64,000 nt of DNA from UHGV virus genome UHGV-0140522, one strand, 5' to 3'. Below the pieces are notes generated by a model, which made no database searches, was not told the origin of the DNA, and saw only the letters and a list, made by a program, of their open reading frames with translations. Numbering within the stretch: position 1 is the first letter of the stretch; every line of letters starts with the position of its first letter. Origin of the DNA: a virus. A program made the position numbers and the translations under genes. Positions 3,130-48,096 of the stretch are shown here, piece after piece.

Positions 3130-3717
3130 CTAAAGCTGGTCGATGGTGATCGAAGAACTCACAACCTGTGAGCCGACCAGAATTTCCTCGCCATAAATGA
3201 GCTGAACCGGGTTGCCCTGGTTAGTGGTGTTTTGTGGCCCGTCGAAATAAAACGAGTTCGAGTTATCTGCCTGCCTTACGCTGTCATTGGTCGCCTGGGG
3301 CGAAATTAACTGCGAAATACCTCCCATCATTAGCGACAAGCCGAGCGGGGCCAGCGCTGGGAACCAGAATGAGGCAACCATGACGAGTGCCCCTACGACT
3401 GTCTGGAACCAACCAAAAGCCTTACCGCCACTACCGCGAGGAACCGGCGTGATGCGGATCTTCGCGATGTTGTCGGACTGCCCCATCATTTGAAACTCGC
3501 TCTCATCAACCGACCACTTATGCCCCTGCTTATTGGTGATCTGGATGTGGTAACTGTCGTAGGTCTTCATGTTGCGTTTCATCCAGGCTTTTAAGCCCGG
3601 ACGGTTGGCTTCGACCAAATCCAACGCCTGTTTGGTGTTGCGCACTTTTAAATGCCAGTGGCGGCCGAAATGTCTGGCCATCGGGCCACCAAGTTGCACA
3701 TGAACTAACTCAGACAC
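3130..3717 (-). CDS. tail assembly protein, lambda I-like
   Basis: 195-aa ORF with a Gly-rich GSGGKAFG motif and hydrophobic C-terminal half; lies between the K-like and J-like genes. Confidence 0.65.
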   Translation of the reverse strand: MSELVHVQLGGPMARHFGRHWHLKVRNTKQALDLVEANRPGLKAWMKRNMKTYDSYHIQITNKQGHKWSVDESEFQMMGQSDNIAKIRITPVPRGSGGKAFGWFQTVVGALVMVASFWFPALAPLGLSLMMGGISQLISPQATNDSVRQADNSNSFYFDGPQNTTNQGNPVQLIYGEEILVGSQVVSSSITIDQL

Positions 3718-4529
3718 GTTTCATCTCCCTTGAGTAAGTCTCTGTGACGCAGGTGGTGCGTCGTGTGTTTCTGGTACATGCCACCGTAATAAGCGCGACA
3801 GCTCAGACGGTCGATCTGGTGGTGCAGGATCATTCCGTCTCCGATGTACACCGCGCAGTGGTCAGGCATCTTTCCGTACTGAATGAAGAAGACGTCACCA
3901 CGCTGGGGTTCCGTCCCCGGCGCCAGACGAACAAGCCCTTCATTGCGGTAGTTCTGATCGAGAATGTCGGTATCGCCCGTGTACCACGATGGAATATGCA
4001 GGTGCGGGTTTGGATTCAACTCGACGTTGAACTCACGCTTCAGGTAGTCGCGGCACAGCATCCAGCAGTCGAAGACACCAAACACATAGGGCCGCCCCAG
4101 ATAAGGCATCTCAAAGCCGTCTGGGGTGATCACATTCATCTCACTGAAGTGAAATGGCGCATCGCCCTCGACGTTCTTCCGAACAGCCAGAATCAGCCAC
4201 GGAACTTCCGTTGCCTCGCATCCGGCGCGGTCGGCGTCTGACGCTTCAGCTGATTCGTCAGTGTGGGAGTGCCAGATGGCAACCACGTCTCCCGCATCTT
4301 CCGCTGCGATAATGTCGTCAGCGTGCATAACAAACGTGTTTTCCGGGTTTTCCGACACGTTCCGGGCTTCCATGAAGCGATATTTCTCGCCAGTGGTACG
4401 TACCAGAAAGCCACACGCTTCGTTCGGGTAGCGTTTGATGGCTGTCAGATAGATTTCCTGCATAACGTCCGAACCAAGCTCAGGGAAAGCTCTATTACCC
4501 ATAACGCGTTGCTCCAATGAACCCGCCAA
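3705..4529 (-). CDS. tail tip assembly protein, lambda K-like (JAMM/MPN plus NlpC/P60 domains); alternative start at 4460
   Basis: HSHTDESAEASDAD JAMM-like metal motif near the N-terminus and a CAVYIGDG NlpC/P60-type Cys region; internal Met at 4460 (MQEIYLTAIKRYPNEACGFLV) matches K-family N-termini. Confidence 0.7.
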   Translation of the reverse strand: MAGSLEQRVMGNRAFPELGSDVMQEIYLTAIKRYPNEACGFLVRTTGEKYRFMEARNVSENPENTFVMHADDIIAAEDAGDVVAIWHSHTDESAEASDADRAGCEATEVPWLILAVRKNVEGDAPFHFSEMNVITPDGFEMPYLGRPYVFGVFDCWMLCRDYLKREFNVELNPNPHLHIPSWYTGDTDILDQNYRNEGLVRLAPGTEPQRGDVFFIQYGKMPDHCAVYIGDGMILHHQIDRLSCRAYYGGMYQKHTTHHLRHRDLLKGDETCLS

Positions 4530-5226
4530 AGTGGATTACGCCATTGGCAAAGTAGTTACGGCGTGCGTTGCATGAGTCGTAGCGTTTCGTGCAGTAATCC
4601 GCGCCTGACATGGTGGTTTGCTGGTTGTTTTTGTCGAAATAGGGGCCGGTGTAGCCGCACTCTGGACCGCGGTATTTCCACGGGCAGGTGTTTTTGATGA
4701 TCTGGCGGTACGGCAGCTGCACGCCCATCAGATCGAACACACTCGACAGCTCAAACTCGACAACCTCATGGGTTTCGAGAGTCTTCTGTTCGATGAACCA
4801 CATCTCATCCGGGAAGTGCTGATTTGGATCTGCGGTTGGATTCCCGTCTTTGAAGTTGGCCGCGTCGAGAAAACGCGCCAGCGTCATCTTGCGGATGATG
4901 CGACAGCCAACCAGATCGTCGTTTGCCTGAACTTCAGCGGAGACAGTTCCGGCAAAGTTGGAGACCTGGATTTTTGGACGCGGCAAAGTACCCTGACCAG
5001 TCTTATCAAAGCCTGACGCCTTGATTGGCCACGGTTCGTAGGACACGCCTTGCCAAACGACTGGCTCCATCAGTTCGTTTGTACCAGCGTGGAAAAACAG
5101 CTTGCCCCCAGAGGTGGTGTTCGACATATCAAGTTCGAACAGCTCAATGAGCGCGGAGGGCGACAAGCTCTGAATATCAGCTTTAATACCCATCGTTTCT
5201 TCCTTGAAATAAAGAGGCGCCAACAT
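4495..5226 (-). CDS. minor tail protein, lambda L-like
   Basis: 243-aa ORF between the M-like and K-like genes; C-terminal Cys cluster (CPWKYRGPECGYTG...CTKRYDSC) as in the gpL Fe-S domain. Confidence 0.7.
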   Translation of the reverse strand: MLAPLYFKEETMGIKADIQSLSPSALIELFELDMSNTTSGGKLFFHAGTNELMEPVVWQGVSYEPWPIKASGFDKTGQGTLPRPKIQVSNFAGTVSAEVQANDDLVGCRIIRKMTLARFLDAANFKDGNPTADPNQHFPDEMWFIEQKTLETHEVVEFELSSVFDLMGVQLPYRQIIKNTCPWKYRGPECGYTGPYFDKNNQQTTMSGADYCTKRYDSCNARRNYFANGVIHFGGFIGATRYG

Positions 5227-15324: not shown

Positions 15325-15336
15325 TTCTCGCTCCTA

Positions 15337-15364
15337 CAAAAAGGGTGGGCGTATAGCCCACCCC
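15337..15364 (-). terminator. rho-independent terminator after the capsid gene
   Basis: Minus-strand GGGGTGGGCTATACGCCCACCC plus TTTTTG; preceded by the palindrome at 15368-15392. Confidence 0.65.
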
Positions 15365-17219: not shown

Positions 17220-18794
17220 TCACTCGGTCTCTTGAGTAGATGAGTCCCCATTCCCTCGGGGTTGATCATGCCCGCTTTCTTGGGCTGTATCTTGATCATA
17301 AGTAAGTACTGACTTATTTTCAAGGGTGTTAAGATCATTTTTTGGAGGAAATTTCAAGAGATCTTTTTGAAATTCCTTCTGCATCGCATCGGAAATGTTC
17401 GGGAAGACCTTCTCGATGAGCATTTCCATCTGATGACGACGAACAGAATCAGGCGCCTGAAGCAGCGACAGTTTCTCGGCAACGGCAAACTCGTCAGTCA
17501 GACCGCGAATGTCGAAACTTTCCGGGTATGCGATCAGAGAGTGGTCTTCATCCAGTTCGACACCCATCCATTTCGCTGCCAGTTGCATCATCTGGCGCTC
17601 TGCCCTTTCGAGACGTTCTGCTTTCGTCACCAGCAGACTGTTAACGCGCTGGAAGTCGTACATCTTCGCTGCGCCCGAAGAGTTATCGATGCCCTGTGCG
17701 TTATCCTGCTTGGTTCGCTCACCTGCCACGCCAACGGAATGGTAGATCTCGTTAATCACCGTCTTAATCGTGGTGATAATCATCTGGGCCTGTTTCGGGT
17801 CCGGAGACAGGTAGAATGGCTGATTACCGCTCTCAGAGTCGAAGGTGAAGACGCGTTTTGTCCCCATTTCGAGCACTTTGGTGTGGTTTTCATCGCCCGG
17901 CAGCAATGACTGAACCGGGATCGCCAGCTGGCTGAATGTCTGATCCTGAATAATCGCGTCAAGGTTCGACAGGTAGTTGGCCACGGCGCGATCAAGATAG
18001 GCGATATCGTCAATCAACGACGGGCTGAAATACGGAGACTCGCTTTCACCAATGCAATCCACCGGGAACACCGGCACCACGCCCAGATTATGCTGGCCGC
18101 TATCCTCCAGAACGACTTTGGCCTGACGGCGACCGCTATTTCCGGAACCTTTCTTCACTTCTTCACGGAACAGATACCACTCGTTTTGCGTCCACAGACG
18201 GTAACGCTGGTATTCCTGTCCGGTTGAAGTGAACGGATCTTCGTCGTCGCGCGCGATTTCAACAATTAGCGCCCACAACATATTGCCGTCTTCATCCCAG
18301 GCAACATCAAGCAGCTGCTGCGGCGAAATCCAGTATGCGTAGGCACGCGCATCATTTTTCTTCTCGTCTGCAACAGACTCAACATCGACGTTCATCGTGC
18401 TGTCCACGACAACCCAGATACGGCCATAAATGGATGATTGCAGATCGATAGCCGCCATAAACGCATCGATGGAGGCGTTCTGGCGCGTGGCTCGCTTCCA
18501 GAAATTGCGGATCTGCTCCGGTGCTTCATCAGTGTTGCGGTGAATGACCTCTTTGAAGAGGTATTTGTTGATGAGGTTTACCACTTCGCGCGTATGGTTG
18601 AAGCGATAAGCGCGTTCCAGGCGCTCTTTGAACTCCTGATCGCCCTCTTTGAAGTAACGGAAGATATTGTCGTTGAACCAGGCACGCCCGCCAGCGTAGG
18701 TGCTGGCGAGGAAGTCCCAATGTTCTTTTTTCTTCTCATATTCAGGGTGGCGTCGTGCCACAAGGTCTTTGATTTGCTTGTCAGTCAATTCCAT
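17220..18794 (-). CDS. portal protein
   Basis: 524-aa ORF immediately downstream of the large terminase; acidic C-terminus. Confidence 0.7.
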   Translation of the reverse strand: MELTDKQIKDLVARRHPEYEKKKEHWDFLASTYAGGRAWFNDNIFRYFKEGDQEFKERLERAYRFNHTREVVNLINKYLFKEVIHRNTDEAPEQIRNFWKRATRQNASIDAFMAAIDLQSSIYGRIWVVVDSTMNVDVESVADEKKNDARAYAYWISPQQLLDVAWDEDGNMLWALIVEIARDDEDPFTSTGQEYQRYRLWTQNEWYLFREEVKKGSGNSGRRQAKVVLEDSGQHNLGVVPVFPVDCIGESESPYFSPSLIDDIAYLDRAVANYLSNLDAIIQDQTFSQLAIPVQSLLPGDENHTKVLEMGTKRVFTFDSESGNQPFYLSPDPKQAQMIITTIKTVINEIYHSVGVAGERTKQDNAQGIDNSSGAAKMYDFQRVNSLLVTKAERLERAERQMMQLAAKWMGVELDEDHSLIAYPESFDIRGLTDEFAVAEKLSLLQAPDSVRRHQMEMLIEKVFPNISDAMQKEFQKDLLKFPPKNDLNTLENKSVLTYDQDTAQESGHDQPRGNGDSSTQETE

Positions 18795-39323: not shown

Positions 39324-39512
39324 TTAAAAAAATCCGAGAATGCTACCCACCGGAACAACGAAAATTCCCACGACACGCGCAAGTGTCATTCCGGCATCAA
39401 ACTGAAGATCGCCACCGTTCACGAGTTTCACCAGATTCATGATCCAGCCATCAAGCAGAAAAATGGCGAAGCCAACAATCATCTCGATGACTTTCTGGAA
39501 GCTCCATTTCAT
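39324..39512 (-). CDS. small two-helix membrane protein (62 aa; holin-like topology)
   Basis: Two hydrophobic helices (VIEMIVGFAIFLLDGWIM; ARVVGIFVVPVGSILGFF). Confidence 0.4.
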   Translation of the reverse strand: MKWSFQKVIEMIVGFAIFLLDGWIMNLVKLVNGGDLQFDAGMTLARVVGIFVVPVGSILGFF

Positions 39513-39521
39513 GCAATAGCC

Positions 39522-40016
39522 TCAGTCACAGCAGAAGGAAGATCCGGAGTTGCAGGTCGAGCTGGAATCGTGTCCAGCAGCATCCCATCCAGAGAGACAG
39601 GGGGTCGTTCTGGCAGTGGTGTCGTCTGCAGGGTTGTAGTGGAAGTAGTTGTGTCCGGTATCAACAGACTCTGACCGGCTGGTACGGCTACCGCTGCCAG
39701 GGTTGCTAAAATTACTCCGTAGGCCATTGGCTTCAGTCGATTTCGTTGAAAATTTTCCATGAGAACTGTCCTTGTGTGCCTGGGATTCACGCAACACACG
39801 AGAGGCGACGGAATCACGCACCTTCTCCATGCCTACTGTCGCGCCCAGATTTGCTATGGCGGTAGCTTGCGCATCAATGCGCTTCTCCAGCTCAAACACT
39901 CGTTCTTCCAGTTCCGCAAGGCGTGCAGAAACACAACCGCTAAACAGCTCGGCCAGAACCAGGCGAATTGAACGGGGACGTTTATTGAAAGAAGTGAAAG
40001 GCGTTTGACGTGCCAT
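39522..40016 (-). CDS. hypothetical protein (164 aa) with N-terminal coiled coil; second overlapping frame 39509..39817 encodes a signal-peptide/Pro-Thr-rich product
   Basis: LAELEERVFELEKRIDAQATAIANL heptads; the overlapped frame reads MAYGVILATLAAVAVPAG...TTTSTTTLQTTPLPERPP. Confidence 0.35.
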   Translation of the reverse strand: MARQTPFTSFNKRPRSIRLVLAELFSGCVSARLAELEERVFELEKRIDAQATAIANLGATVGMEKVRDSVASRVLRESQAHKDSSHGKFSTKSTEANGLRSNFSNPGSGSRTSRSESVDTGHNYFHYNPADDTTARTTPCLSGWDAAGHDSSSTCNSGSSFCCD

Positions 40017-40140
40017 TTGGATTCCATTCAGTGTCAGAAAGAGTTGCGGCTGGCCAAGCCAGCCGCCTTTTGGCGTTCCATCCTAGAACAGTACCTAACC
40101 GGTACTTCGTCATCCTGACGAACGGTAAGATACCTGATTT

Positions 40141-40172
40141 AAAATGATAGGTAAATACTTACCTATCATTTT
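40141..40172. promoter_or_regulatory. 32-bp near-perfect palindrome of the GGTAAGTACTTACC family at the left edge of the cargo island
   Basis: AAAATGATAGGTAAATACTTACCTATCATTTT. Confidence 0.5.
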
Positions 40173-40410
40173 GTGACAAAAATCCAATGTCACGCTTGTG
40201 AGGCATATCGGCTGCGGAGTAGGCGGCGATCAGAGCAGGCCGTTCAATAGATCTGCTTTGAGAGAGGATTGGACCAAGCCCTAGATAACGAGAGAGCACG
40301 GTGCTAATACCCAAGACGACAACAGACGAGTTCATGGCAACATTTTGGAAGGTATCTTCGTATCATGATGTGGTTAAATAGACACAATTTAACCCAATGG
40401 AATTTTAGCC

Positions 40411-41013
40411 ATGCTAACCTTCTGGCACGAATATTCAGATCTCATCTCCGCATTTTTAGCGGCTCTTTTAGGTGGCTGTTTCACGATGAAAGGAGTGACA
40501 GCTCAGGTGAAACAGCAGGCAAAACAGCAGGCAACAGCGGCCAGAGAGAAGCGTATAACAACGCTATTGGGTGTCAGAGAGGAAATAGACTCACTGATTA
40601 AGTTGTATAAGGCCAGAATTGAAGAGGAAATCAAACAATACGACCGGAACTCACCGTTCGATAACATTTTCCCCATTACTCAAAACTACTTCACTTTCTA
40701 TGAAGCTAACTCGGCATCTCTACCTGAAGTTCATAGAGAAACACTATCAAAAATTGTGGCTTTTTATACAAGCGCAAGAAGCCTAATTGATTCCTATCGC
40801 GGTAATAATGCCCTTATCGAAAGGCTGGACTCCACGCAGGTTGCCAGTGACATTACTGGCAACAAAGAGCATCTTGCACACCTGAAAAGATACACAATCC
40901 TAGCCACAGAGTACGGCCGCGGATTAATGATGATTCATGAAGAGGTCATGCTGCGCTATAAACAGGTTATAGAAGCCATCGATGGTGAAATCTCGCAGCT
41001 ACAATGCAGTTAG
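40411..41013 (+). CDS. membrane-anchored hypothetical protein (200 aa)
   Basis: N-terminal transmembrane helix LISAFLAALLGGCF followed by a helical cytoplasmic domain; own promoter region; opposite strand to the phage genes. Confidence 0.5.
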   Translation: MLTFWHEYSDLISAFLAALLGGCFTMKGVTAQVKQQAKQQATAAREKRITTLLGVREEIDSLIKLYKARIEEEIKQYDRNSPFDNIFPITQNYFTFYEANSASLPEVHRETLSKIVAFYTSARSLIDSYRGNNALIERLDSTQVASDITGNKEHLAHLKRYTILATEYGRGLMMIHEEVMLRYKQVIEAIDGEISQLQCS

Positions 41014-41147
41014 TACTACAGCCTGTCCGCTTATGGCGCGTAGCGGACTAGCTCATTGGGCAGAAGGTCCGCTCTGAGCGAGGAGCGGACATTCGCCCCT
41101 CTGTCGTATGTCCTTAAAGAGCGCACACCAGATATAAAAGAATTGCG

Positions 41148-42350
41148 TTAGTGTACCTTCCTATTTTGACGGGATGTTGCATATGTCATCACTACCGCCC
41201 CCAGTAGTAACAAACCACTTAAACCAAATGCACTTCTCCATCCCAGACTGTCGAATGCCAGACCTCCAGCCGTTGAACCAAGCGCAATCGATAGCTGGAT
41301 CACCGCAACCATGAGGCCACCACCCCTCTCTGCATCTTCGGGTAACGCTCGTGCTATCCATGTCCACCATCCTGTTGGCGCAGCCGTCGCAAGTAGCCCC
41401 CACAGGCTTAATAATACGGCAACGGCCCAGATGTGGTGTCCGACCAGCAGTAACGCACCAGTAATCGCGGCCATAAGCAACGGGATCATGATTAAGGTCT
41501 TGTAAAATTTGGCGTTCAGGAATGTTGAGACGATCATTGTGCCGACAAAACCTGCTATGCCTATTGCAAGCAAAATCAGAGAAAGGTTAGAAGGTCCCAC
41601 TCTGGTGACGCTCTCCAGAAAGGGGCGCACGTAGGTAAACAAAGCAAACTGTCCCATAAAGAAGAGCCCGCAGGCAAGCATTCCCGTTGGTACGATGGCA
41701 ACGCTGAACAGACGAAGCACAGACCCCTGTGGTTTTTGTGTTTTATCGCTTTCCATCGAAGGCAGGCTGAACCATTGCCAGATGAACGCAGCTATCGCAA
41801 GAGGGACGAGACATAAAAAGGCCCCACGCCAACCGACCGTTGTCCCCAGATAACTACCAAGCGGCGCAGCCACAACGGTGGCCAGCGCGTTACCGCCGTT
41901 AAAAATTGCCAGTGCGCGGGGAACCTGGTGCTGTGGCACGAGCCGAATGGCGGTTGCAGCCGACATTGACCAGAACCCTCCGATGACGACGCCAATCAGA
42001 GCCCTCCCCAGCATATAAATCGGATAGTCAGGCGCCATGGTGATAACTAACCCTGATATGGCCATTAAGACCGTTAGCCCAAGCAGAAGATATTTACGAT
42101 TCAGGTCTCCGGCAATATGGGAGATAGTCAGACTGGTCAGCACTGCCAGTGCGCCAGAGACGGCAATTCCTTGCCCTGCCAACCCTTCGGTAACGTGCAA
42201 ATCGCGGGCAATGAGCGTAAGCAGGCTGACTGGCATAAACTCAGAAGCGATCAGCACAAACACGCAAAGCGTCATGGCAAATACGCCGCTCCAGTATGCA
42301 TGCTTTTTTTCGTATGATGGTTTTAGACTTACAGTGGACATTATTAGCAT
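41148..42350 (-). CDS. MFS efflux transporter, NepI (purine ribonucleoside efflux) family-like
   Basis: 12-transmembrane DHA1 MFS; N-terminal region closely resembles E. coli NepI as I recall it ([38 protein letters not shown]). Confidence 0.8.
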   Translation of the reverse strand: MLIMSTVSLKPSYEKKHAYWSGVFAMTLCVFVLIASEFMPVSLLTLIARDLHVTEGLAGQGIAVSGALAVLTSLTISHIAGDLNRKYLLLGLTVLMAISGLVITMAPDYPIYMLGRALIGVVIGGFWSMSAATAIRLVPQHQVPRALAIFNGGNALATVVAAPLGSYLGTTVGWRGAFLCLVPLAIAAFIWQWFSLPSMESDKTQKPQGSVLRLFSVAIVPTGMLACGLFFMGQFALFTYVRPFLESVTRVGPSNLSLILLAIGIAGFVGTMIVSTFLNAKFYKTLIMIPLLMAAITGALLLVGHHIWAVAVLLSLWGLLATAAPTGWWTWIARALPEDAERGGGLMVAVIQLSIALGSTAGGLAFDSLGWRSAFGLSGLLLLGAVVMTYATSRQNRKVH

Positions 42351-42518
42351 CCCTTAATATCGAACCAGCCAGATTCAGGCGCAGTCGGGTCAGAAGTTAT
42401 TCAGGGAATAACGACATAATAGGTGGGTGAGAATATGGGGCGATGTGACATATTCGGCGTCACACCAGGCAGGTAAAAGCCACCCGTTTATGACAGGTGG
42501 CCTGGTAAACTTTTCGGG

Positions 42519-43667
42519 TTACCTTAAGTTTGCTTTGAAAAATTGCTCAAATTTGGCAAATGGGATCTTACCCGCAACGTTGTCGTACAGATCAACATGG
42601 TTTGCCCCAGGGACAATCACTAACTCTTTCTCTTTGCTGCCGATTGCCTTAAAGGCATCTTCAGCAAAATAGCGTGAATGGGCTTTTTCGCCGGTCACGA
42701 TGAGTGTAGGGATAGTAACTTCATTGGCGTAACTCAGCAGCGGCATATTCATAAATGACAGCGGCATGGTTGCGTTCCAGGCACCGGTTGAGTTGACCGA
42801 ACGCTCATGGAAACCACGCGGCATGCGGTAATAATCAAAGAACTCTTTCAATACTGGGTTAGGATTCGCGGGCAGAGTTTCCGGCAGAATACGATCGGAA
42901 GCGGTGACGTTGCCCTTCTCATCAACATAAATGTCATGCCCGCCTGGCGCGAAAGCGCCATTTTCCGCATCCTTCCAGCGCTGCGTGTTCAGATACTGCA
43001 ATACGGCACGACGATCGGCAGTGGTATAGCGGTCTTTGCCATCGCCCACGCCATGCCCCATCGCACGGCTCATGTCATACATCACGCTGGTCGCCACCGC
43101 CTTGACACGCGTGTCCATCGCGGCGTCGTTTAAGGCCATGCCGCCCCATCCGCAGATACCGAGCAGCCCGATACGGTTGCGATCCACCTCTTTTTGCAGG
43201 CCTAAGAAATCAACCGCCGCGCTGAAATCCTCGGTGTTGATATCCGGAGATGCGACGTTGCGCGGGTAGCCGCCGCTTTCGCCCGTGTATGAAGGGTCGA
43301 AAGCCAGAGTGACAAATCCCTGTTCAGCCAGCGTCTGCGCATACAGGCCGCTGGATTGCTCTTTCACCGCCCCGAAGGGGCCGCTAACAGCAATAGCTGC
43401 CAGCTTGCGATCACCACGATCCTTCGGGATGTAGAGATCCCCGACTAAGGTGATCCCGTATCGGTTCGGAAAGGTCACCTTACGGTGATCAACTTTCGTG
43501 CTCTCAGCAAAAGTTTTATCCCATTTTTCGACCAGCGAAACGGGCGCGTTCGGATTGGCTGTATCAGCGTAACTCATATTTGTGACTCCACTTAATGATG
43601 CGCATAACAACAGGGCGGGTATCGCAGTTGTCAATTTTTGGGTGAAAGCAGTCATCAAAATCCCCTT
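42519..43667 (-). CDS. secreted alpha/beta hydrolase (dienelactone hydrolase/YcjY-like)
   Basis: Signal peptide MKGILMTAFTQKLTTAIPALLLCASLSGV; nucleophile elbow GICGWGG; track ORF 42519..43733 has an upstream extension. Confidence 0.65.
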   Translation of the reverse strand, partial: KGILMTAFTQKLTTAIPALLLCASLSGVTNMSYADTANPNAPVSLVEKWDKTFAESTKVDHRKVTFPNRYGITLVGDLYIPKDRGDRKLAAIAVSGPFGAVKEQSSGLYAQTLAEQGFVTLAFDPSYTGESGGYPRNVASPDINTEDFSAAVDFLGLQKEVDRNRIGLLGICGWGGMALNDAAMDTRVKAVATSVMYDMSRAMGHGVGDGKDRYTTADRRAVLQYLNTQRWKDAENGAFAPGGHDIYVDEKGNVTASDRILPETLPANPNPVLKEFFDYYRMPRGFHERSVNSTGAWNATMPLSFMNMPLLSYANEVTIPTLIVTGEKAHSRYFAEDAFKAIGSKEKELVIVPGANHVDLYDNVAGKIPFAKFEQFFKANLR

Positions 43668-43825
43668 CATAAAACGTGCCAGAAACAGGTTTCCTACGGA
43701 CAACGCTGCTGTGCTTTGTTGCAATGCGCACATTATAGTTAGCAGAAATAGTACTGATTAGAGGGTGAAAAATGCTAAGATTGATAACATATTGTTCTGA
43801 ATTGTGATGCGGCAGCAGGGGAAGG

Positions 43826-44713
43826 ATGATGGCGAAACGGGAAAACTATAACGATCTCTATCTGTTTATGCAGGTCGTGCGAGAAGGGAGTTTTACTGCC
43901 GCCGCGCAGAGGCTTGGCCTGGCGCAGTCAGGAATTAGTCGTGCAGTGCGCGAGCTGGAAGAACGACTGGGCGTGCAGCTTCTGGTGCGTACCACGCGCA
44001 AGTTATCGCTCACCCATGCCGGCGAGTTGCTCTATCGAACCGTCGAATCTGGATTTGACGCTTTAGATATGGGGCTTGCCACGCTGGCCCATTATCGCCA
44101 TACCCCATCGGGTACGGTCCGTATTAATGCCAGTCAGCACGCCATTGATAAAGTGCTGCTGCCGAAGCTGGCGGTGTTTAAACAACGCTACCCAGATATT
44201 CGGCTGGAGCTCATCAGCGAAAGCCGGTTTGTCGATATTATTGCTGAGCGCTTCGATGCCGGTATACGTCTGGGCTCGGAAGTAGGTAGCGGTATGGTCG
44301 CTGTGCGCATTTCGCCCGATATGGAGATGGCCATTGTCGGCACGCCCGAGCACTTTCGTCGCTACGGATTTCCGCAAACTCCCTCCGATTTAGTTATTCA
44401 TCCCTGCATCGCTTACCAGTTTGGAGACGGCAGCCTGTATGCATGGGAACTCAATCAAGACGGTAAAAAGATAACCCATCAACCTCAGGGACAATGGGCC
44501 TTTGCTGACAGCTATATGGAAGCCAAAGCCGCCCGGCTAGGCCTGGGACTGGCTTATGTTCCGGAGGAATTAGTTTCTGATGATATAGAACAGGGGGCGC
44601 TGATCAGAGTTTTGCAATGCTACAGTCAGCGCCTGGAAGGTTCATATCTCTATTATCCGCACCGCAATGTGTCACCCGCTCTAAGAGCGGTTATCGATAC
44701 ATTGAGAATTTAA
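43826..44713 (+). CDS. LysR-family transcriptional regulator
   Basis: N-terminal HTH LYLFMQVVREGSFTAAAQRLGLAQSGISRAVRELEERLG, LysR substrate-binding fold length; divergent from the hydrolase. Confidence 0.85.
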   Translation: MMAKRENYNDLYLFMQVVREGSFTAAAQRLGLAQSGISRAVRELEERLGVQLLVRTTRKLSLTHAGELLYRTVESGFDALDMGLATLAHYRHTPSGTVRINASQHAIDKVLLPKLAVFKQRYPDIRLELISESRFVDIIAERFDAGIRLGSEVGSGMVAVRISPDMEMAIVGTPEHFRRYGFPQTPSDLVIHPCIAYQFGDGSLYAWELNQDGKKITHQPQGQWAFADSYMEAKAARLGLGLAYVPEELVSDDIEQGALIRVLQCYSQRLEGSYLYYPHRNVSPALRAVIDTLRI

Positions 44714-45335
44714 GGGATAAAGATGAGGTGGTTCGCAGGCCTGGGTAATAGTTGGAAAACAACGTCCGCTCCTGGCACATTGAAGACATTACGATGGGCG
44801 ATTTTTCCCCTCACGCGTGTGCGTAAATATTAAAATTTTTTCTAGAAAAGAAAAACTTACTTCCCAGAACAGGTTTTAATAAAACCTGAACTGAACGAAC
44901 GAAGTGAGTGAAGTTCACCTCGAACGAAGTGAGAGGTTGTCTTTTCAGGTAATACTCTCCCAGGGAGGTGAGTACAAAATTCCCTCACCAACCTGGTCGT
45001 TACATAACCTGAAAAGTTATGACCTAAGTCTACTGCCAGCTTAGGCTTGGGAAGTTATGGATGACAGCACCCCAGAACCGAGATCTTCCCACACTTTATG
45101 AAGGGGAGTACTGGATTCAACCTCTCGAAACACTCCAGACTCGACAATCATAAAGTGACCTTTCTCTCTGCCCACTTTGGTTCCCCCTTCCCCAACCCCT
45201 AAACGGTGCTGGTTCTACGCTGGTAGTGAGCTTTTTTAAACCTGACGCCAGTGACGCTATCCCCCACCCATCAGGTCGAGCTGCCGGAATCAATCCGGAA
45301 AGCGGGTAGATTTTATCACTGGCGATCTGCGTTTT

Positions 45336-45360
45336 AAATGGTAAGTACTTACCGATTATT
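45336..45360. promoter_or_regulatory. AT-rich palindrome family member at right edge of cargo island
   Basis: aaatGGTAAGTACTTACCgattatt. Confidence 0.45.
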
Positions 45361-45586
45361 TCGATTGATTATTTTCTCGACCATGAAGCTGGACGTTCAG
45401 GGCAAACACCTCATTGATGAGTTCCCCTAACAGCTGCTCGACCAGCTCTTTGTGCTCACCTGAGTGAAGGCACTTGAGCGACCATTCGTAGAGACTGAAA
45501 GCCTTATCGCGATCTTTCATCATGTCGCGTACTTTGGTCAGAAAATCGCTCTCAACGAGCGCTACGACGTTCGTCGGGTATACCAT
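45356..45586 (-). CDS. hypothetical small protein (76 aa)
   Basis: Lies about 116 nt downstream of the second copy of the large palindrome block, the same spacing as terS from the first copy. Confidence 0.4.
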   Translation of the reverse strand: MVYPTNVVALVESDFLTKVRDMMKDRDKAFSLYEWSLKCLHSGEHKELVEQLLGELINEVFALNVQLHGRENNQSK

Positions 45587-45654
45587 GATAGTTTTCCTTA
45601 CTGTGGTTCATAAAATCGATTCTAGAGCGTCTGGAGAGGGGTTCCAGTGGGTTC

Positions 45655-45785
45655 TGGAGGTGTAAAACGGTCTGGGAGTTGTTTGGAAATCACGTCTTAA
45701 AAAGCCTGCGTCTGTATATATTAATAATTAGTACTTAGTTATTTATATATACGGAAGCAGGTTCTCAAACTAACTCCCAGACTGG
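45655..45785. repeat. large palindrome block, copy 2 (degenerate)
   Basis: Arms AAGCCTGCGTCTGTATATAT and ATATATACGGAAGCAGGTTC around a 23-nt spacer containing AGTACTTAG, then TCAAACTAACTCCCAGAC; flanks also similar to copy 1. Confidence 0.6.
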
Positions 45786-45788
45786 TGT

Positions 45789-46406
45789 TTACGCTGCCTT
45801 TTTACGTGGTCTCTTCTTCCTGACAACATTGGCAGGATCATAACCACCCAGCTTTTTCATCACCGCCAGCGGTATCTTGCTGATGGTGTGCCCAGCTTCC
45901 TGACAGTAGCCACGGAAGATAAGCAACATGCTACCACCAGGGTTGATGTTCACCTCCACCAGCCCAAGTTCAACATCCGGCTCAACGAACGCCACGCGGC
46001 CGCCAGACAAGATGACGGTTTCGTTGGCGCATTCAGCCGCACGCTCGTACCACTGCGTATCGAGGGATTGTGGTATCAACATGACTGTCGTCACTCCACG
46101 CGCCTGCTCGCGAATGGCTGCGTCTATCCAGGGGGTGATTTTGGAGTAGGGCGGGTTAAGGAACGCCACAGTGCCAGGTTCTCCCCAGCTGCACTTGAGC
46201 GCATCACGCTCAACACCGATAAAGTTCGGCAGGAGGGCATTATCTTTGTTGCAGGCGACGTCCACATCGAACTTTACGCCTATGTAACGTTGGATGGCGA
46301 CAAACAACCACTGCGGTGTGCGCCAAAGGTCGCGAAGAGAGGCATCACGCTCTCGCTTTTTGATTTTTTCGGCTGCGATCATTACTTTGTTCTGATAGGT
46401 AAACAC
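45789..46406 (-). CDS. dam: DNA N6-adenine methyltransferase (phage Dam family)
   Basis: LWRTPQWLF and FLNPPYS motifs; alternative ATG at 46382 because the listed start is a GTG inside a palindrome. Confidence 0.6.
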   Translation of the reverse strand: MFTYQNKVMIAAEKIKKRERDASLRDLWRTPQWLFVAIQRYIGVKFDVDVACNKDNALLPNFIGVERDALKCSWGEPGTVAFLNPPYSKITPWIDAAIREQARGVTTVMLIPQSLDTQWYERAAECANETVILSGGRVAFVEPDVELGLVEVNINPGGSMLLIFRGYCQEAGHTISKIPLAVMKKLGGYDPANVVRKKRPRKKAA

Positions 46407-46419
46407 TTACCTATTTTTT
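46393..46419. promoter_or_regulatory. AT-rich palindrome family member
   Basis: TGATAGGTAAACACTTACCTATTTTTT. Confidence 0.45.
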
Positions 46420-46567
46420 CATTTAATCCAACGGATAGCAAACAAAGAAGAACGCGCCAGATCCGCAAACGGGAAGCTCTCTGGCGCGTTTTATCGATGC
46501 TGGGTATGCGATTAGCTTACCCAGCGTCCTAAAGCTCTCAGGGGGCTTTAGATCGGGTAGGGGAACA

Positions 46568-47413
46568 TCATCCAATGGAATACTCCGCTATGAATTTTTT
46601 GACGATCGGCGACTCTTTATTAAGGGTTAGATTTCCACCTTCCCTGGTGGCAATGCCAGTAGCTGGAAACACAGCCATCATCTGGCCAGCCTGAGTCGAA
46701 GCGGTGTTGAGCGGATATGGTTTTTCCGGGTTGCTCATTAGCGCCAGTTTAATGCTATTGCTGGTCGCCGTGTTCGCGTCAAGGATATGGCGCATTGCGA
46801 TTACCGTGTAGACGCTGATTTCCGGCCCACCACTAAACCAGTTCAAAAGGTTTAAGATCTTGTCTTTCGCTTTGACTGGCGCCCCTTCGAATGCGGCAGT
46901 AAAGCTCTCACTTTCCAGACCGGCTGTCGCATAGAACGATTCGTCCTTACCTTCCAGCGTGAAGCGAGGTTTGGCCGGTGTACGCTCTGATTTTGCCTTC
47001 TGGCGTTTTGGCTGCTCTTCTTCAGGTTTAGGCTCTGACGCCACTGAAGGTAAAGGGGTTGGATCTGTACCGGTAGTCTCAGTACTTCGAGCGTCAAGTT
47101 CAGGCGCTGTCTCGTTCACTATCTCCGCAACAAGGTCACGCTCTGGTTCCTCGACCTTCACCGATTCGTGCTCAATCTCAAGTTCTTCCAGAACGCTACT
47201 CAGATCGCCGGTAGAGCTGGCATTCATGACTTCATCCGCCACCGCCTCGACTGGTTTTGCGATTGCATCATCCAGACCAGAGAGAAGATCGTCTATCTCG
47301 TCGACCCCGCTCATTTTCGCAGCTTTCTGAACTGGTTCGTCGAGAGATTGCAGCATTGCAGTCAGTTCGTCCAGGTCATCGTTTTTAACAGTGTTTGTAA
47401 CTGCGCTCATTTT
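46568..47413 (-). CDS. hypothetical acidic protein (281 aa from Met with AAGGAG RBS)
   Basis: Track ORF 46568..47494 trimmed; Asp/Glu-rich N-terminal half. Confidence 0.45.
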   Translation of the reverse strand, partial: KMSAVTNTVKNDDLDELTAMLQSLDEPVQKAAKMSGVDEIDDLLSGLDDAIAKPVEAVADEVMNASSTGDLSSVLEELEIEHESVKVEEPERDLVAEIVNETAPELDARSTETTGTDPTPLPSVASEPKPEEEQPKRQKAKSERTPAKPRFTLEGKDESFYATAGLESESFTAAFEGAPVKAKDKILNLLNWFSGGPEISVYTVIAMRHILDANTATSNSIKLALMSNPEKPYPLNTASTQAGQMMAVFPATGIATREGGNLTLNKESPIVKKFIAEYSIG

Positions 47414-47538
47414 TAACTCCTTATGTTTTCGTTGGTGCGTTTCCGCGTTTTGGTTGAGCGTATTTTGGCAAAACCTATCAGGCGGAAAAGTCATAATTAC
47501 AGGCAGTTAGAAGAACTGAAGGCAAAGAAAAAGCGCCA

Positions 47539-48096
47539 TCAGGCGCTTTCGAATGGGAGTTTGAAGAAGCCGTATTTCTCTCGGGCTTTGAAGAAACACT
47601 GCATCATCAGGTCAGTATCGTAGAGAGCGCTGTGGGCCTTCTCACGGTCGTAAGTGAACCCAAGTGAGAACGCCAGCTCTTCCAGGCGTGGGCGCTTCCC
47701 ATCCTCGGTAGCCCACAAGCCATCCAGCATGGAGTCAACCAGAGGGATATCTGGCAATTTCACCCCATAGCTACCGAACTCGTGGCGAATGAACGGAAGG
47801 TCAAAAGCCTCTCCGTTATGGGCGACTAACGCGCTACATGCGCCCATGTACGCAGCAATCTTGCCTGCGTGGTCAGCCAGTAGCGGTTCCGTCGCCAGAT
47901 CTTCCAGTGAAATGCCATGCACTGCCTGCGCCTTCGGATCTATGCTTCGACGCGGGTTGAAGCGCATCTCAAGGCTGTCGATGTGCTTCTGGGTTTCCAG
48001 TTCATAACGGGTTATCGCGATTTCGATAATTTTGTGGCCGGATGTGAAGTCCAGCCCTGTGGACTCAATATCGACGCCACCGACAATCGTGGTCAT
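47539..48096 (-). CDS. DnaQ-like 3'-5' exonuclease (DEDDh)
   Basis: Exo I VDIESTGLD, Exo II HNGEAFDLPF, Exo III HSALYDTD. Confidence 0.7.
   Translation of the reverse strand: MTTIVGGVDIESTGLDFTSGHKIIEIAITRYELETQKHIDSLEMRFNPRRSIDPKAQAVHGISLEDLATEPLLADHAGKIAAYMGACSALVAHNGEAFDLPFIRHEFGSYGVKLPDIPLVDSMLDGLWATEDGKRPRLEELAFSLGFTYDREKAHSALYDTDLMMQCFFKAREKYGFFKLPFESA

Follow-up and report, generated by a model that had tools for sequence, protein, structure and literature searches.

How did genes for a transporter, a hydrolase and a regulator come to lie within a phage backbone, and where does the acquired DNA begin and end? We examined these questions at positions 40141-45360 of a 64,000-nucleotide stretch of UHGV virus genome UHGV-0140522 (hereafter, the window). 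As a preliminary description of this sequence had listed, the segment has four open reading frames (ORFs): a major facilitator superfamily (MFS) exporter, an alpha/beta hydrolase with a Sec-type leader and a LysR-type regulator, which together we call the trio, and a 200-amino-acid (aa) protein with a hydrophobic N-terminus. That description regarded the whole segment as one island bounded by AT-rich palindromes that act as module-exchange points. We found the joints elsewhere, at two GC-rich sites that we call A and B. We consider it probable that cassettes are exchanged at these sites, in a slot that replaced the RNase H gene rnhA, by a recombinase that would act in trans.

A slot with variable cargo in an SSU5-like backbone

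The backbone of the window was collinear with Salmonella phage SSU5 and 97% identical to it on both sides of the slot. Both slot flanks were also 99.2-99.9% identical to IncFIB "plasmids" of C. freundii and E. hormaechei, and from these alignments we identify the backbone carrying the slot as an SSU5/pHCM2-like phage-plasmid. Similarity to SSU5 ended at 40231 and restarted at 44812, which defines 40232-44811 as foreign DNA. Alignment to the closest relative, C. freundii pRHBSTW-00302_3, confined the difference to the trio (41091-44764), and 44765-48000 was fully common to both. In place of the trio, pRHBSTW-00302_3 has DUF2254 and betT between backbone flanks that are 99.2-99.9% identical. At the same position, four further relatives carry two GNAT genes, two hypothetical genes, a gene for a 107-aa hypothetical protein, or IS110 with DUF262, and SSU5 carries rnhA.

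We mapped the joints in six relatives with six different slot contents. The left joints fell at 41089-41093 in five relatives and at 40267 in the relative with IS110 and DUF262, a Salmonella element in which this variant substitutes for both cassettes of the window. The right joints fell at 44760-44765 across all six. Because the joints lie at several positions depending on the relative, we conclude that the segment is layered and is not a single island. Its order in the window is a remnant of an A site, the 200-aa gene, a doublet of B and A sites, the MFS-hydrolase-LysR trio, a B half-site and the backbone (Table 1).

These joints bear directly on the view that AT-rich palindromes of the TAGGTAAGTACTTACCTA family are the exchange points and that 40141-45360 was inserted as one island. 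The palindromes at 40141 and 45336 are genuine members of a family with the core GGTAAGTACTTACC, which gave 17 strand-matches in the window against 0.2 expected, corresponding to eight sites. Two of its members do bracket the variable region, and palindromes could in principle be recombinogenic. However, every joint of the six relatives lay 60-900 bp inside the palindromes, at GC-rich A or B sites, and both palindromes are within DNA that SSU5, which lacks the island, also has. The palindromes at the slot edges were retained regardless of cargo, the one at 40141-40172 being kept in SSU5 and all relatives examined, and each of the remaining six copies is found in conserved backbone, a short way upstream of a gene. 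In addition, the 200-aa gene and 44780-45335 are common to relatives with other cargo. Because of this sharing, 44780-45335, which had been counted as the right flank of the island, is a backbone leader. Alignment to relatives therefore upheld the idea of acquired cargo at this position, but moved its joints to 40231/40267, 41090 and 44764; the palindromes are almost certainly not the exchange points.

The SSU5 stretch that aligns left of the slot (3242-4147 of the SSU5 locus examined) overlaps the end of the rnhA coding sequence (4075-4839). Leftovers of SSU5 rnhA are present on either side of the array, with its 3' end within 40159-40335 (minus strand) and its upstream leader at 44812-44915. 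Because these leftovers flank the array, we conclude that the slot arose via replacement of RNase H. A 58-aa ORF at 40159-40335 (minus strand) is probably a relic. We also looked for A- or B-like sequences at the borders of SSU5 rnhA, and the resemblance was too weak to call rnhA a cassette.

Could the slot have been filled by transposition, by capture mediated by an insertion sequence (IS), or by Xer/dif-like module exchange? ISSen4, IS110 and IS5 occur in the same slot of relatives, and Xer-dependent pdif modules are a known precedent for exchange with the recombinase in trans. In contrast, neither the ORF listing nor family scans revealed a transposase ORF in 40141-45360, and the window's island has neither terminal inverted repeats nor a target duplication. 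ISSen4 in pRHBSTW-00302_3 merely interrupts the 200-aa gene. A search of 40000-45500 with a dif consensus found no dif-like 28-mer (at most 7 mismatches) and no XerD arm (at most 1 mismatch). We regard all three routes as extremely improbable.

Joints, shared cassettes and a natural permutation at A and B sites

The A site (GTCCGCTC-TGAGCGAG-GAGCGGAC) and the B site (GTCCGCTC-CTGGCACA-GAGCGGAC) are 24-bp GC-rich palindromes. They have the same 8-bp inverted arms (GTCCGCTC / GAGCGGAC) and different 8-bp centers (TGAGCGAG versus CTGGCACA). The hairpin pattern occurred twice in the window against 0.01 expected. The A site at the left joint of the trio (41067-41090) and the B-type unit that ends cassette 1 (41025-41048) form a B-A doublet, and doublet units fold as separate stable hairpins (z -2.9 to -3.6). 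The P2-like phage and E. coli have the complete B hairpin at the other end of the trio, which in the window is a half-site. Further left, the joints of SSU5 and of the DUF262/IS110 relative fall around a degenerate A site; the latter breaks at 40267 and has an A-like site of its own, GTCGGCTTTGAGCGAGG.

We then compared the arms of each joint across relatives. At the A joint, the left arm was constant, as was the 5' part of the core, and the right arm changed with the cargo. At the B joint, the left arm changed with the cargo, and TGGCACA with the backbone arm TTGAAGAC was constant. This pattern is as expected if strand exchange occurs inside the centers.

The trio forms a 3.7-kb cassette with identical ends in four unrelated contexts, the window included. 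It is present in Kosakonia cowanii plasmid NZ_CP107078 (99.2-99.6% identity), in about 103 E. coli chromosomes within a CP4-like island (93.3%), and in the Yersinia P2-like phages vB_YpM_115 and vB_YpM_117 (93%), where it lies between the tail-fiber assembly gene and sheath gene FI, a position that we identify as the Z/fun slot. Two plasmids in all covered at least 80% of the trio, neither of them SSU5-like. Klebsiella, Pantoea and E. coli have more distant hydrolase-LysR pairs (79-83%), both chromosomal and plasmid-borne. In the SSU5 slot, the trio occurred in no other plasmid in PLSDB and in no phage in GenBank, and the relatives differ at this position. These results bear out the preliminary description in regarding the cargo as horizontally acquired, and the trio was swapped recently into the window's transmissible phage-plasmid. 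The further claim that the trio is chromosomal in origin is only loosely right, because the nearest copies are themselves on mobile elements, namely the Kosakonia plasmid, CP4-like islands and P2-like phages.

Base composition and codon usage, a check suggested in the preliminary description, did not separate the trio from the backbone. The GC content of the trio was 0.52-0.53, and its distance to the backbone in relative synonymous codon usage was 0.45-0.53, against a backbone mean of 0.46 +/- 0.14. Among the cargo genes, the one for the 200-aa protein alone was AT-rich (GC 0.44). The foreignness of the trio is therefore shown by the comparative evidence.

A pair of E. coli plasmids, pPGRT46 and NZ_CP020517, provided a natural "before and after" of the proposed reaction. 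They share a region, 99.4-99.96% identical, that contains betT with DUF2254, two other cassettes and a small recombinase gene, and its segments are arranged as S1-S2-int-S4-S5 versus S1-S4-int-S2-S5. All four breakpoints of the permutation fell within TGGCACA or GAGCGA cores (two B and two A sites, with overlaps of 19-25 bp), and the arms were exchanged around both cores as predicted. Excision of a circle by B x B exchange and its re-insertion by A x A exchange would explain the permutation. The betT/DUF2254 module of the pPGRT46 type is 90% identical to that of the SSU5-like relatives and ends at the same B core. Both permuted regions carry IS26 and one adjoins qnrS1; the permutation, of two cassettes around the 200-aa recombinase gene, is the sole difference between them. 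In the E. coli CP4-like island, strain ATCC 25922 has, as the allele of the trio, a 10-kb array of several cassettes that contains this recombinase gene. There, the island backbone (99.2-99.4% identical) stops at ...GTCCGTTGTGAGCGA and restarts at GTCCGCTCCTGGCACAGAGCGGACTGTCAGATTAG, again with the joints in A/B cores.

Similar arrays were found in other elements. E. hormaechei pMS-37c has the order doublet, GNAT, doublet, GNAT, B, and Kosakonia and Pantoea (LPP-1-type) plasmids have co-oriented multi-site arrays. In Kosakonia NZ_CP107078, the modules between B-A doublets at 41.7-49.6 kb are DUF523, the trio, small ORFs, an aldo-keto reductase with AraC, and lpxP. We scanned genome and viral collections with a pattern that allowed 64 possible centers and obtained at least 120 stretches in each. 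Among the matches listed, nearly all had the centers TGGCACA/TGGCGCA (201) or TGAGCGA (73). Prophage contigs had B followed by the constant P2-type backbone TGTCAGATTAG, with many different cargos to the left of B. A second prophage backbone, identified as that of a lambdoid prophage, had a constant part, A and variable DNA at one end and variable DNA, B and a constant part at the other. Recurrent cassettes included one of 984 bp in 9 loci of 4 flank classes and one of 2.2 kb in 6 loci, among them an SSU5-like plasmid; the clustering counts near-palindromic sites twice, once on each strand, and only clear multi-context clusters were used.

Paired hairpins of this kind could also be host repeats related to repetitive extragenic palindromes (REP), bacterial interspersed mosaic elements (BIME) or REPINs, or they could be terminators, in either case moving along with genes. 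Swaps would then occur between doublets of about 70 bp by RecA, by a phage recombinase with relaxed homology or by illegitimate recombination, without a dedicated enzyme. The two-hairpin doublets do resemble BIMEs or REPINs, their units fold stably, and most arrays have no recombinase gene in cis. Moreover, alphaproteobacterial contigs contain this B hairpin in many copies, in a REP-like manner, often right after gene ends. In E. coli, however, the doublet is low-copy and accessory: matches occurred in 2248 of 5426 complete genomes (41%), at 1 place in the median positive genome and at 6 places at most, and 59% had none. RecA-type homologous exchange needs longer homology than arms of 8-9 bp. 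The observed crossovers lie within 7-nt cores flanked by such arms, with differing sequence outside, which leaves too little homology for RecA. In Enterobacteriaceae and Proteus, a recombinase gene lies between half-sites with conserved cores (see below). We conclude that repeats without an enzyme of their own are an unlikely explanation, and the breakpoints within 7-nt cores lend comparative support to an exchange that would be site-specific and enzyme-dependent.

The alphaproteobacterial hairpin, AAT-GTCCGCTwTTGGCACAAAGCGGAC-AT, was seen in contigs of Bradyrhizobium, Pseudolabrys, Xanthobacteraceae and Rhizobium. It is followed about 18 nt later by a second hairpin, GTCCGCTTTCGGGGGTAAAGCGGAC, with the center TTCGGGGGTAA, and a contig holds several copies. 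The likeness of the first hairpin to the enterobacterial B hairpin may reflect common descent, convergence or a binding protein that both share.

A candidate recombinase and comparison with known systems

The most likely exchange enzyme, as judged from its linkage to the sites, is a 200-aa protein, represented by WP_001305361, that consists of a tyrosine-recombinase catalytic domain alone (PF00589, E 5e-19) and is encoded 2 kb from E. coli doublets. Its similarity to XerC, XerA and FimB-type invertases is weak and below threshold, and no solved structure is related to it by sequence. Around its gene, five enterobacterial contexts had a conserved block that extended exactly from TGGCACA to GTCCCTTATGAGCGA, and everything outside differed. 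Within the block, the B center TGGCACA is followed by a GGGCTGC...GCAGCCC hairpin and the stop codon, and GTCCCTTATGAGCGA lies upstream of the start codon. Because the block spans the B core to GTCCCTTATGAGCGA, the recombinase gene occupies the spacer position of a B-A doublet. The Proteus recombinase (86% identity) has TGGCACA and GAGCGA cores at the same positions in other surroundings. Marine gammaproteobacterial contigs (84% identity) keep the B core by the recombinase gene, and their upstream core is unclear.

The recombinase belongs to a large family with generic names only, at 76-96% identity from Enterobacterales and Morganellaceae to marine Alteromonadales, Idiomarina and Cycloclasticus, a conservation that is unusually high for a mobile-element recombinase. 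Of 5426 complete E. coli genomes, 863 carry its gene, as do at least 112 enterobacterial plasmids. Its neighbors in Proteus are of defense type (TIR, SIR2, DUF3800 and an SMC-like ATPase), and arsenic and copper resistance genes adjoin it in the marine contigs. Two other proteins were considered as the enzyme. The 200-aa ORF of the window is 603 bp long, as is the recombinase gene, but the two are unrelated and the ORF matched no family. A 332-aa XerC-like integrase encoded 1.8 kb upstream of the Kosakonia NZ_CP107078 array was dropped because it was found nowhere else among the loci examined.

How might the exchange proceed? We start from what is observed, that is, the joints, the shared cassettes, the permutation and the linkage of recombinase gene and sites. 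The slot would hold two cassettes, a fixed one with the 200-aa gene and the recently swapped-in 3.7-kb trio cassette. The two ends of each cassette would bring the right arm of A and the left arm of B, respectively, and the backbone would keep the complementary halves. Crossover would take place inside the centers, A with A and B with B, either as a double exchange or through a circle excised via one site type and re-inserted via the other. The small tyrosine recombinase would be supplied in trans by a co-resident element; its catalysis of the exchange is a step that we infer.

Several observations weigh against this reading. The backbone arm of the window's B site, TTGAAGAC, agrees with the consensus at just 4 of 8 positions, and in the B site of cassette 1 the core is degenerate, which makes the present-day activity of these sites uncertain. 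Arms of 8-9 bp are short for a recombinase binding site. The betT module of pPGRT46 lies between two B sites and not between A and B, so the site rules are not strict, and the multi-copy hairpin of Alphaproteobacteria means that A and B could have another primary role. As to the enzyme, tblastn and phmmer found no copy of the recombinase in the 64-kb window, where it would thus have to act in trans. GenBank phage records contained no match to this recombinase above 60% identity, and most arrays lack the gene in cis (about 8 of about 250 loci examined have it). The link between recombinase and sites is comparative only.

Short palindromes that separate cassettes also bring integrons to mind, and we considered whether the B-A doublet could be a folded, single-stranded attC-like site for an integron integrase. 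Imperfect palindromes of about 70 nt, each composed of two "simple sites", do separate the cassettes of the arrays, and the four like arms could in principle fold as in attC, with an outer and an inner stem and unpaired centers. However, the predicted fold is two separate hairpins, none of the three joints has an RYYYAAC...GTTRRRY pair, and there is no IntI gene. The 200-aa recombinase did not match an integron-integrase model, and the Kosakonia integrase scored 71 bits against a cutoff of 265 (TIGR02249). With tblastn and phmmer, the window had no tyrosine recombinase akin to these two array-associated integrases. The cassettes have their own regulators and genes in both orientations. Taken together, these results make a folded attC-like site very unlikely.

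The A/B arrays nonetheless share with integrons the exchangeable cassettes, the imperfect palindromic sites, a tyrosine recombinase and a cassette pool common to several replicons. The many arrays without a recombinase in cis recall clusters of attC sites lacking integron-integrases (CALIN). The A/B system differs in having two heterospecific cores, no attC or attI motifs and no IntI, and a recombinase reduced to the catalytic domain. Its cassettes contain several genes, and the recombinase gene lies between cassettes instead of heading the array.

Exchange between flanking inverted repeats was reportedly proposed for the Z/fun locus of P2-like phages by Nilsson, Karlsson and Haggard-Ljungquist in 2004 (Mol Biol Evol 21:1). 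In phage P2 (NC_001895), we found the same site types around fun(Z), at 15335-15358 and about 17432-17455: gene G is directly followed by a B site, GTCCGCTTTTGGCACAGAGTGGAC, and a degenerate A site lies on the upstream side of fun(Z). Because fun(Z) is bounded by the same B and A, the joints of the window are the P2 Z/fun repeats in an unrelated phage-plasmid. The two also share cargo, as the window's trio sits in the Z/fun slot of Yersinia phage vB_YpM_115. The window's slot differs in that it lies in an SSU5-like backbone, replaces rnhA and holds a two-cassette array with a B-A doublet. A/B cassette exchange extends this little-known phenomenon of P2; the logic of two cores, A and B, and the choice of the 200-aa recombinase as candidate enzyme are results of the present analysis. 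The 2004 work on the P2-like Z/fun locus is cited in PMC8987985.

The window's slot resembles phage and phage-plasmid hotspots in its fixed backbone position and highly variable cargo, which includes defense-type cargo (DUF262 in the Salmonella relative). Papers on P2/P4 hotspots (PMC9122126, PMC13586616) and on hotspot annotation (bioRxiv 10.1101/2024.10.15.618418) mention no hairpins, palindromes or dedicated recombinase at the joints, and for the other P2 hotspot cos-end or homologous recombination was proposed (PMC9122126). Exact hairpin strings and recombinase accessions matched none of the papers searched.

Three further comparisons can be made. Like the pdif/Xer modules of Acinetobacter, A/B cassettes are discrete, are bounded by short sites, move between replicons and would have their enzyme supplied in trans, but the sites are unrelated to dif and the recombinase is not XerC/D. 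Like engineered cassette exchange with heterospecific lox or FRT sites, each A/B cassette is flanked by two centers that do not cross-react. REP, BIME and REPIN families share with A/B the paired short palindromes, the many pairs without an enzyme and the rarer copies with an enzyme gene between them, and A/B has a high-copy relative in Alphaproteobacteria. In contrast to REP sequences, A/B sites are low-copy in E. coli, lie on mobile elements and delimit cargo cassettes, and their associated enzyme is a PF00589 tyrosine recombinase and not the Y1 HUH transposase of REP-associated systems (RAYT). More tentatively, and with somewhat less confidence than even chances, we suggest that the A/B sites and the 200-aa recombinase may constitute an uncharacterized system that is integron-like but mechanistically distinct. 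It would be marked by two heterospecific cores, a recombinase gene between cassettes and arrays mostly served in trans. It would shuttle metabolic, resistance-type and defense cargo across Gammaproteobacteria on P2-like phages, lambdoid prophages, SSU5-like phage-plasmids, CP4-like islands and plasmids, and its miniature B-A doublets would be akin to a palindromic repeat family that is high-copy in Alphaproteobacteria.

Cargo genes, backbone elements and what the slot may mean

The features of the slot and its edges are given in Table 1.

Table 1. Sites, genes and backbone elements at the slot, with window coordinates.
Feature	Position	Strand	Remarks
AT-rich 32-bp palindrome, backbone element	40141..40172	.	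perfect 14-bp arms; DNA fold -11.7 kcal/mol, z -8.4
rnhA (RNase H) 3'-end remnant of SSU5	40159..40231	-	window 39326-40231 aligns with 3242-4147 of the SSU5 locus examined, 97.4%
Degenerate A site ATCTGCTTTGAGAGAGGATTGGAC, left edge of cassette 1	40249..40274	+	weak match, A half of doublet profile
Cassette 1: 200-aa protein, hydrophobic N-terminus	40411..41013	+	ORF; GC 0.44
B-type site, GTCCGCT-TATGGCGCGT-AGCGGAC, degenerate core	41025..41048	+	cassette 1 end; own hairpin
A site GTCCGCTC-TGAGCGAG-GAGCGGAC, trio left joint	41067..41090	+	exact match; five relatives diverge at 41089-41093
DHA1-type MFS exporter, NepI-like	41148..42350	-	MFS_1 E 6e-39
Alpha/beta hydrolase, Sec-type leader, PA2218/YcjY-like	42519..43655	-	start possible up to 43733; Pfam PETase/DLH
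LysR-type regulator, divergent	43826..44713	+	HTH_1 and LysR_substrate; YafC-like 192 bits, below cutoff
B half-site, trio right joint	44764..44787	+	cassette arm/core GTCCGCTCC-TGGCACA joined to backbone arm TTGAAGAC
Non-coding backbone leader	44780..45335	.	97-99.8% common to all relatives; to SSU5 from 44812
AT-rich palindrome, core GGTAAGTACTTACC, backbone	45336..45360	.	overlaps minus-strand promoter-like site

The exporter had been named a NepI-family pump. It is an MFS_1 protein and NepI-like, but it scored 289.7 bits on the NepI equivalog model (NCBIfam NF007578) against a cutoff of 584 and is hence not the equivalog. The closest solved relatives of the hydrolase are P. aeruginosa PA2218 (2HDW, E 1e-123) and E. 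coli YcjY (5XB6, E 2e-42). We infer a role for the trio at the level of a guess, namely inducible hydrolysis and export of an ester or lactone compound. The protein of cassette 1 had no match in Pfam, NCBIfam, PHROG or PADLOC. Its gene is common to pRHBSTW-00302_3 and three further relatives carrying other cargo, and in pRHBSTW-00302_3 it is split by ISSen4 (IS3 family; 3844-5064 of the locus examined), which suggests that it is dispensable.

All eight AT-rich palindromes (15374, 18815, 30670, 36791, 40150, 45340, 46398 and 55981; consensus approximately TAGGTAAGTACTTACCTA) occupy short gaps between genes, each 0-130 nt upstream of the start of a minus-strand gene. They look like promoter/operator punctuation of the SSU5-like backbone, either as the operator of a regulon or as a promoter element specific to the phage. 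A strong terminator-like GC-rich hairpin (40046-40066, minus strand), with 9 pairs and then a T-run, separates the palindrome at 40141 from the start of a 164-aa gene, as would fit a transcription-unit boundary at the slot edge. To the right, the leader contains the direct repeats noted in the preliminary description, two copies of the 13-nt sequence CGAACGAAGTGAG at 44896-44908 and 44921-44933 against 0.03 expected. This leader of about 550 bp could be a regulatory region or encode a small RNA upstream of the slot. A scan for sigma-70 promoters and terminators gave no more sites than shuffled sequence, and an Rfam scan of 39900-45800 gave chance-level matches only.

Hotspots of temperate phages, satellites and phage-plasmids have been widely catalogued, and the entry and exit of their cargo has mostly been left to "recombination". 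The case described here resolves the joints to the base pair, defines the two kinds of site involved, includes a natural permutation that resembles the product of recombination, and points to one small enzyme as a candidate. If our reading is correct, it would explain why the same gene modules are found in unrelated phages, plasmids and islands. Cassette boundaries would become predictable, which would aid the mining of defense and resistance cargo, and the system may offer a compact natural tool for two-site cassette exchange. For the phage-plasmid of the window, the case shows that a transporter-hydrolase-regulator module has recently entered a transmissible element.

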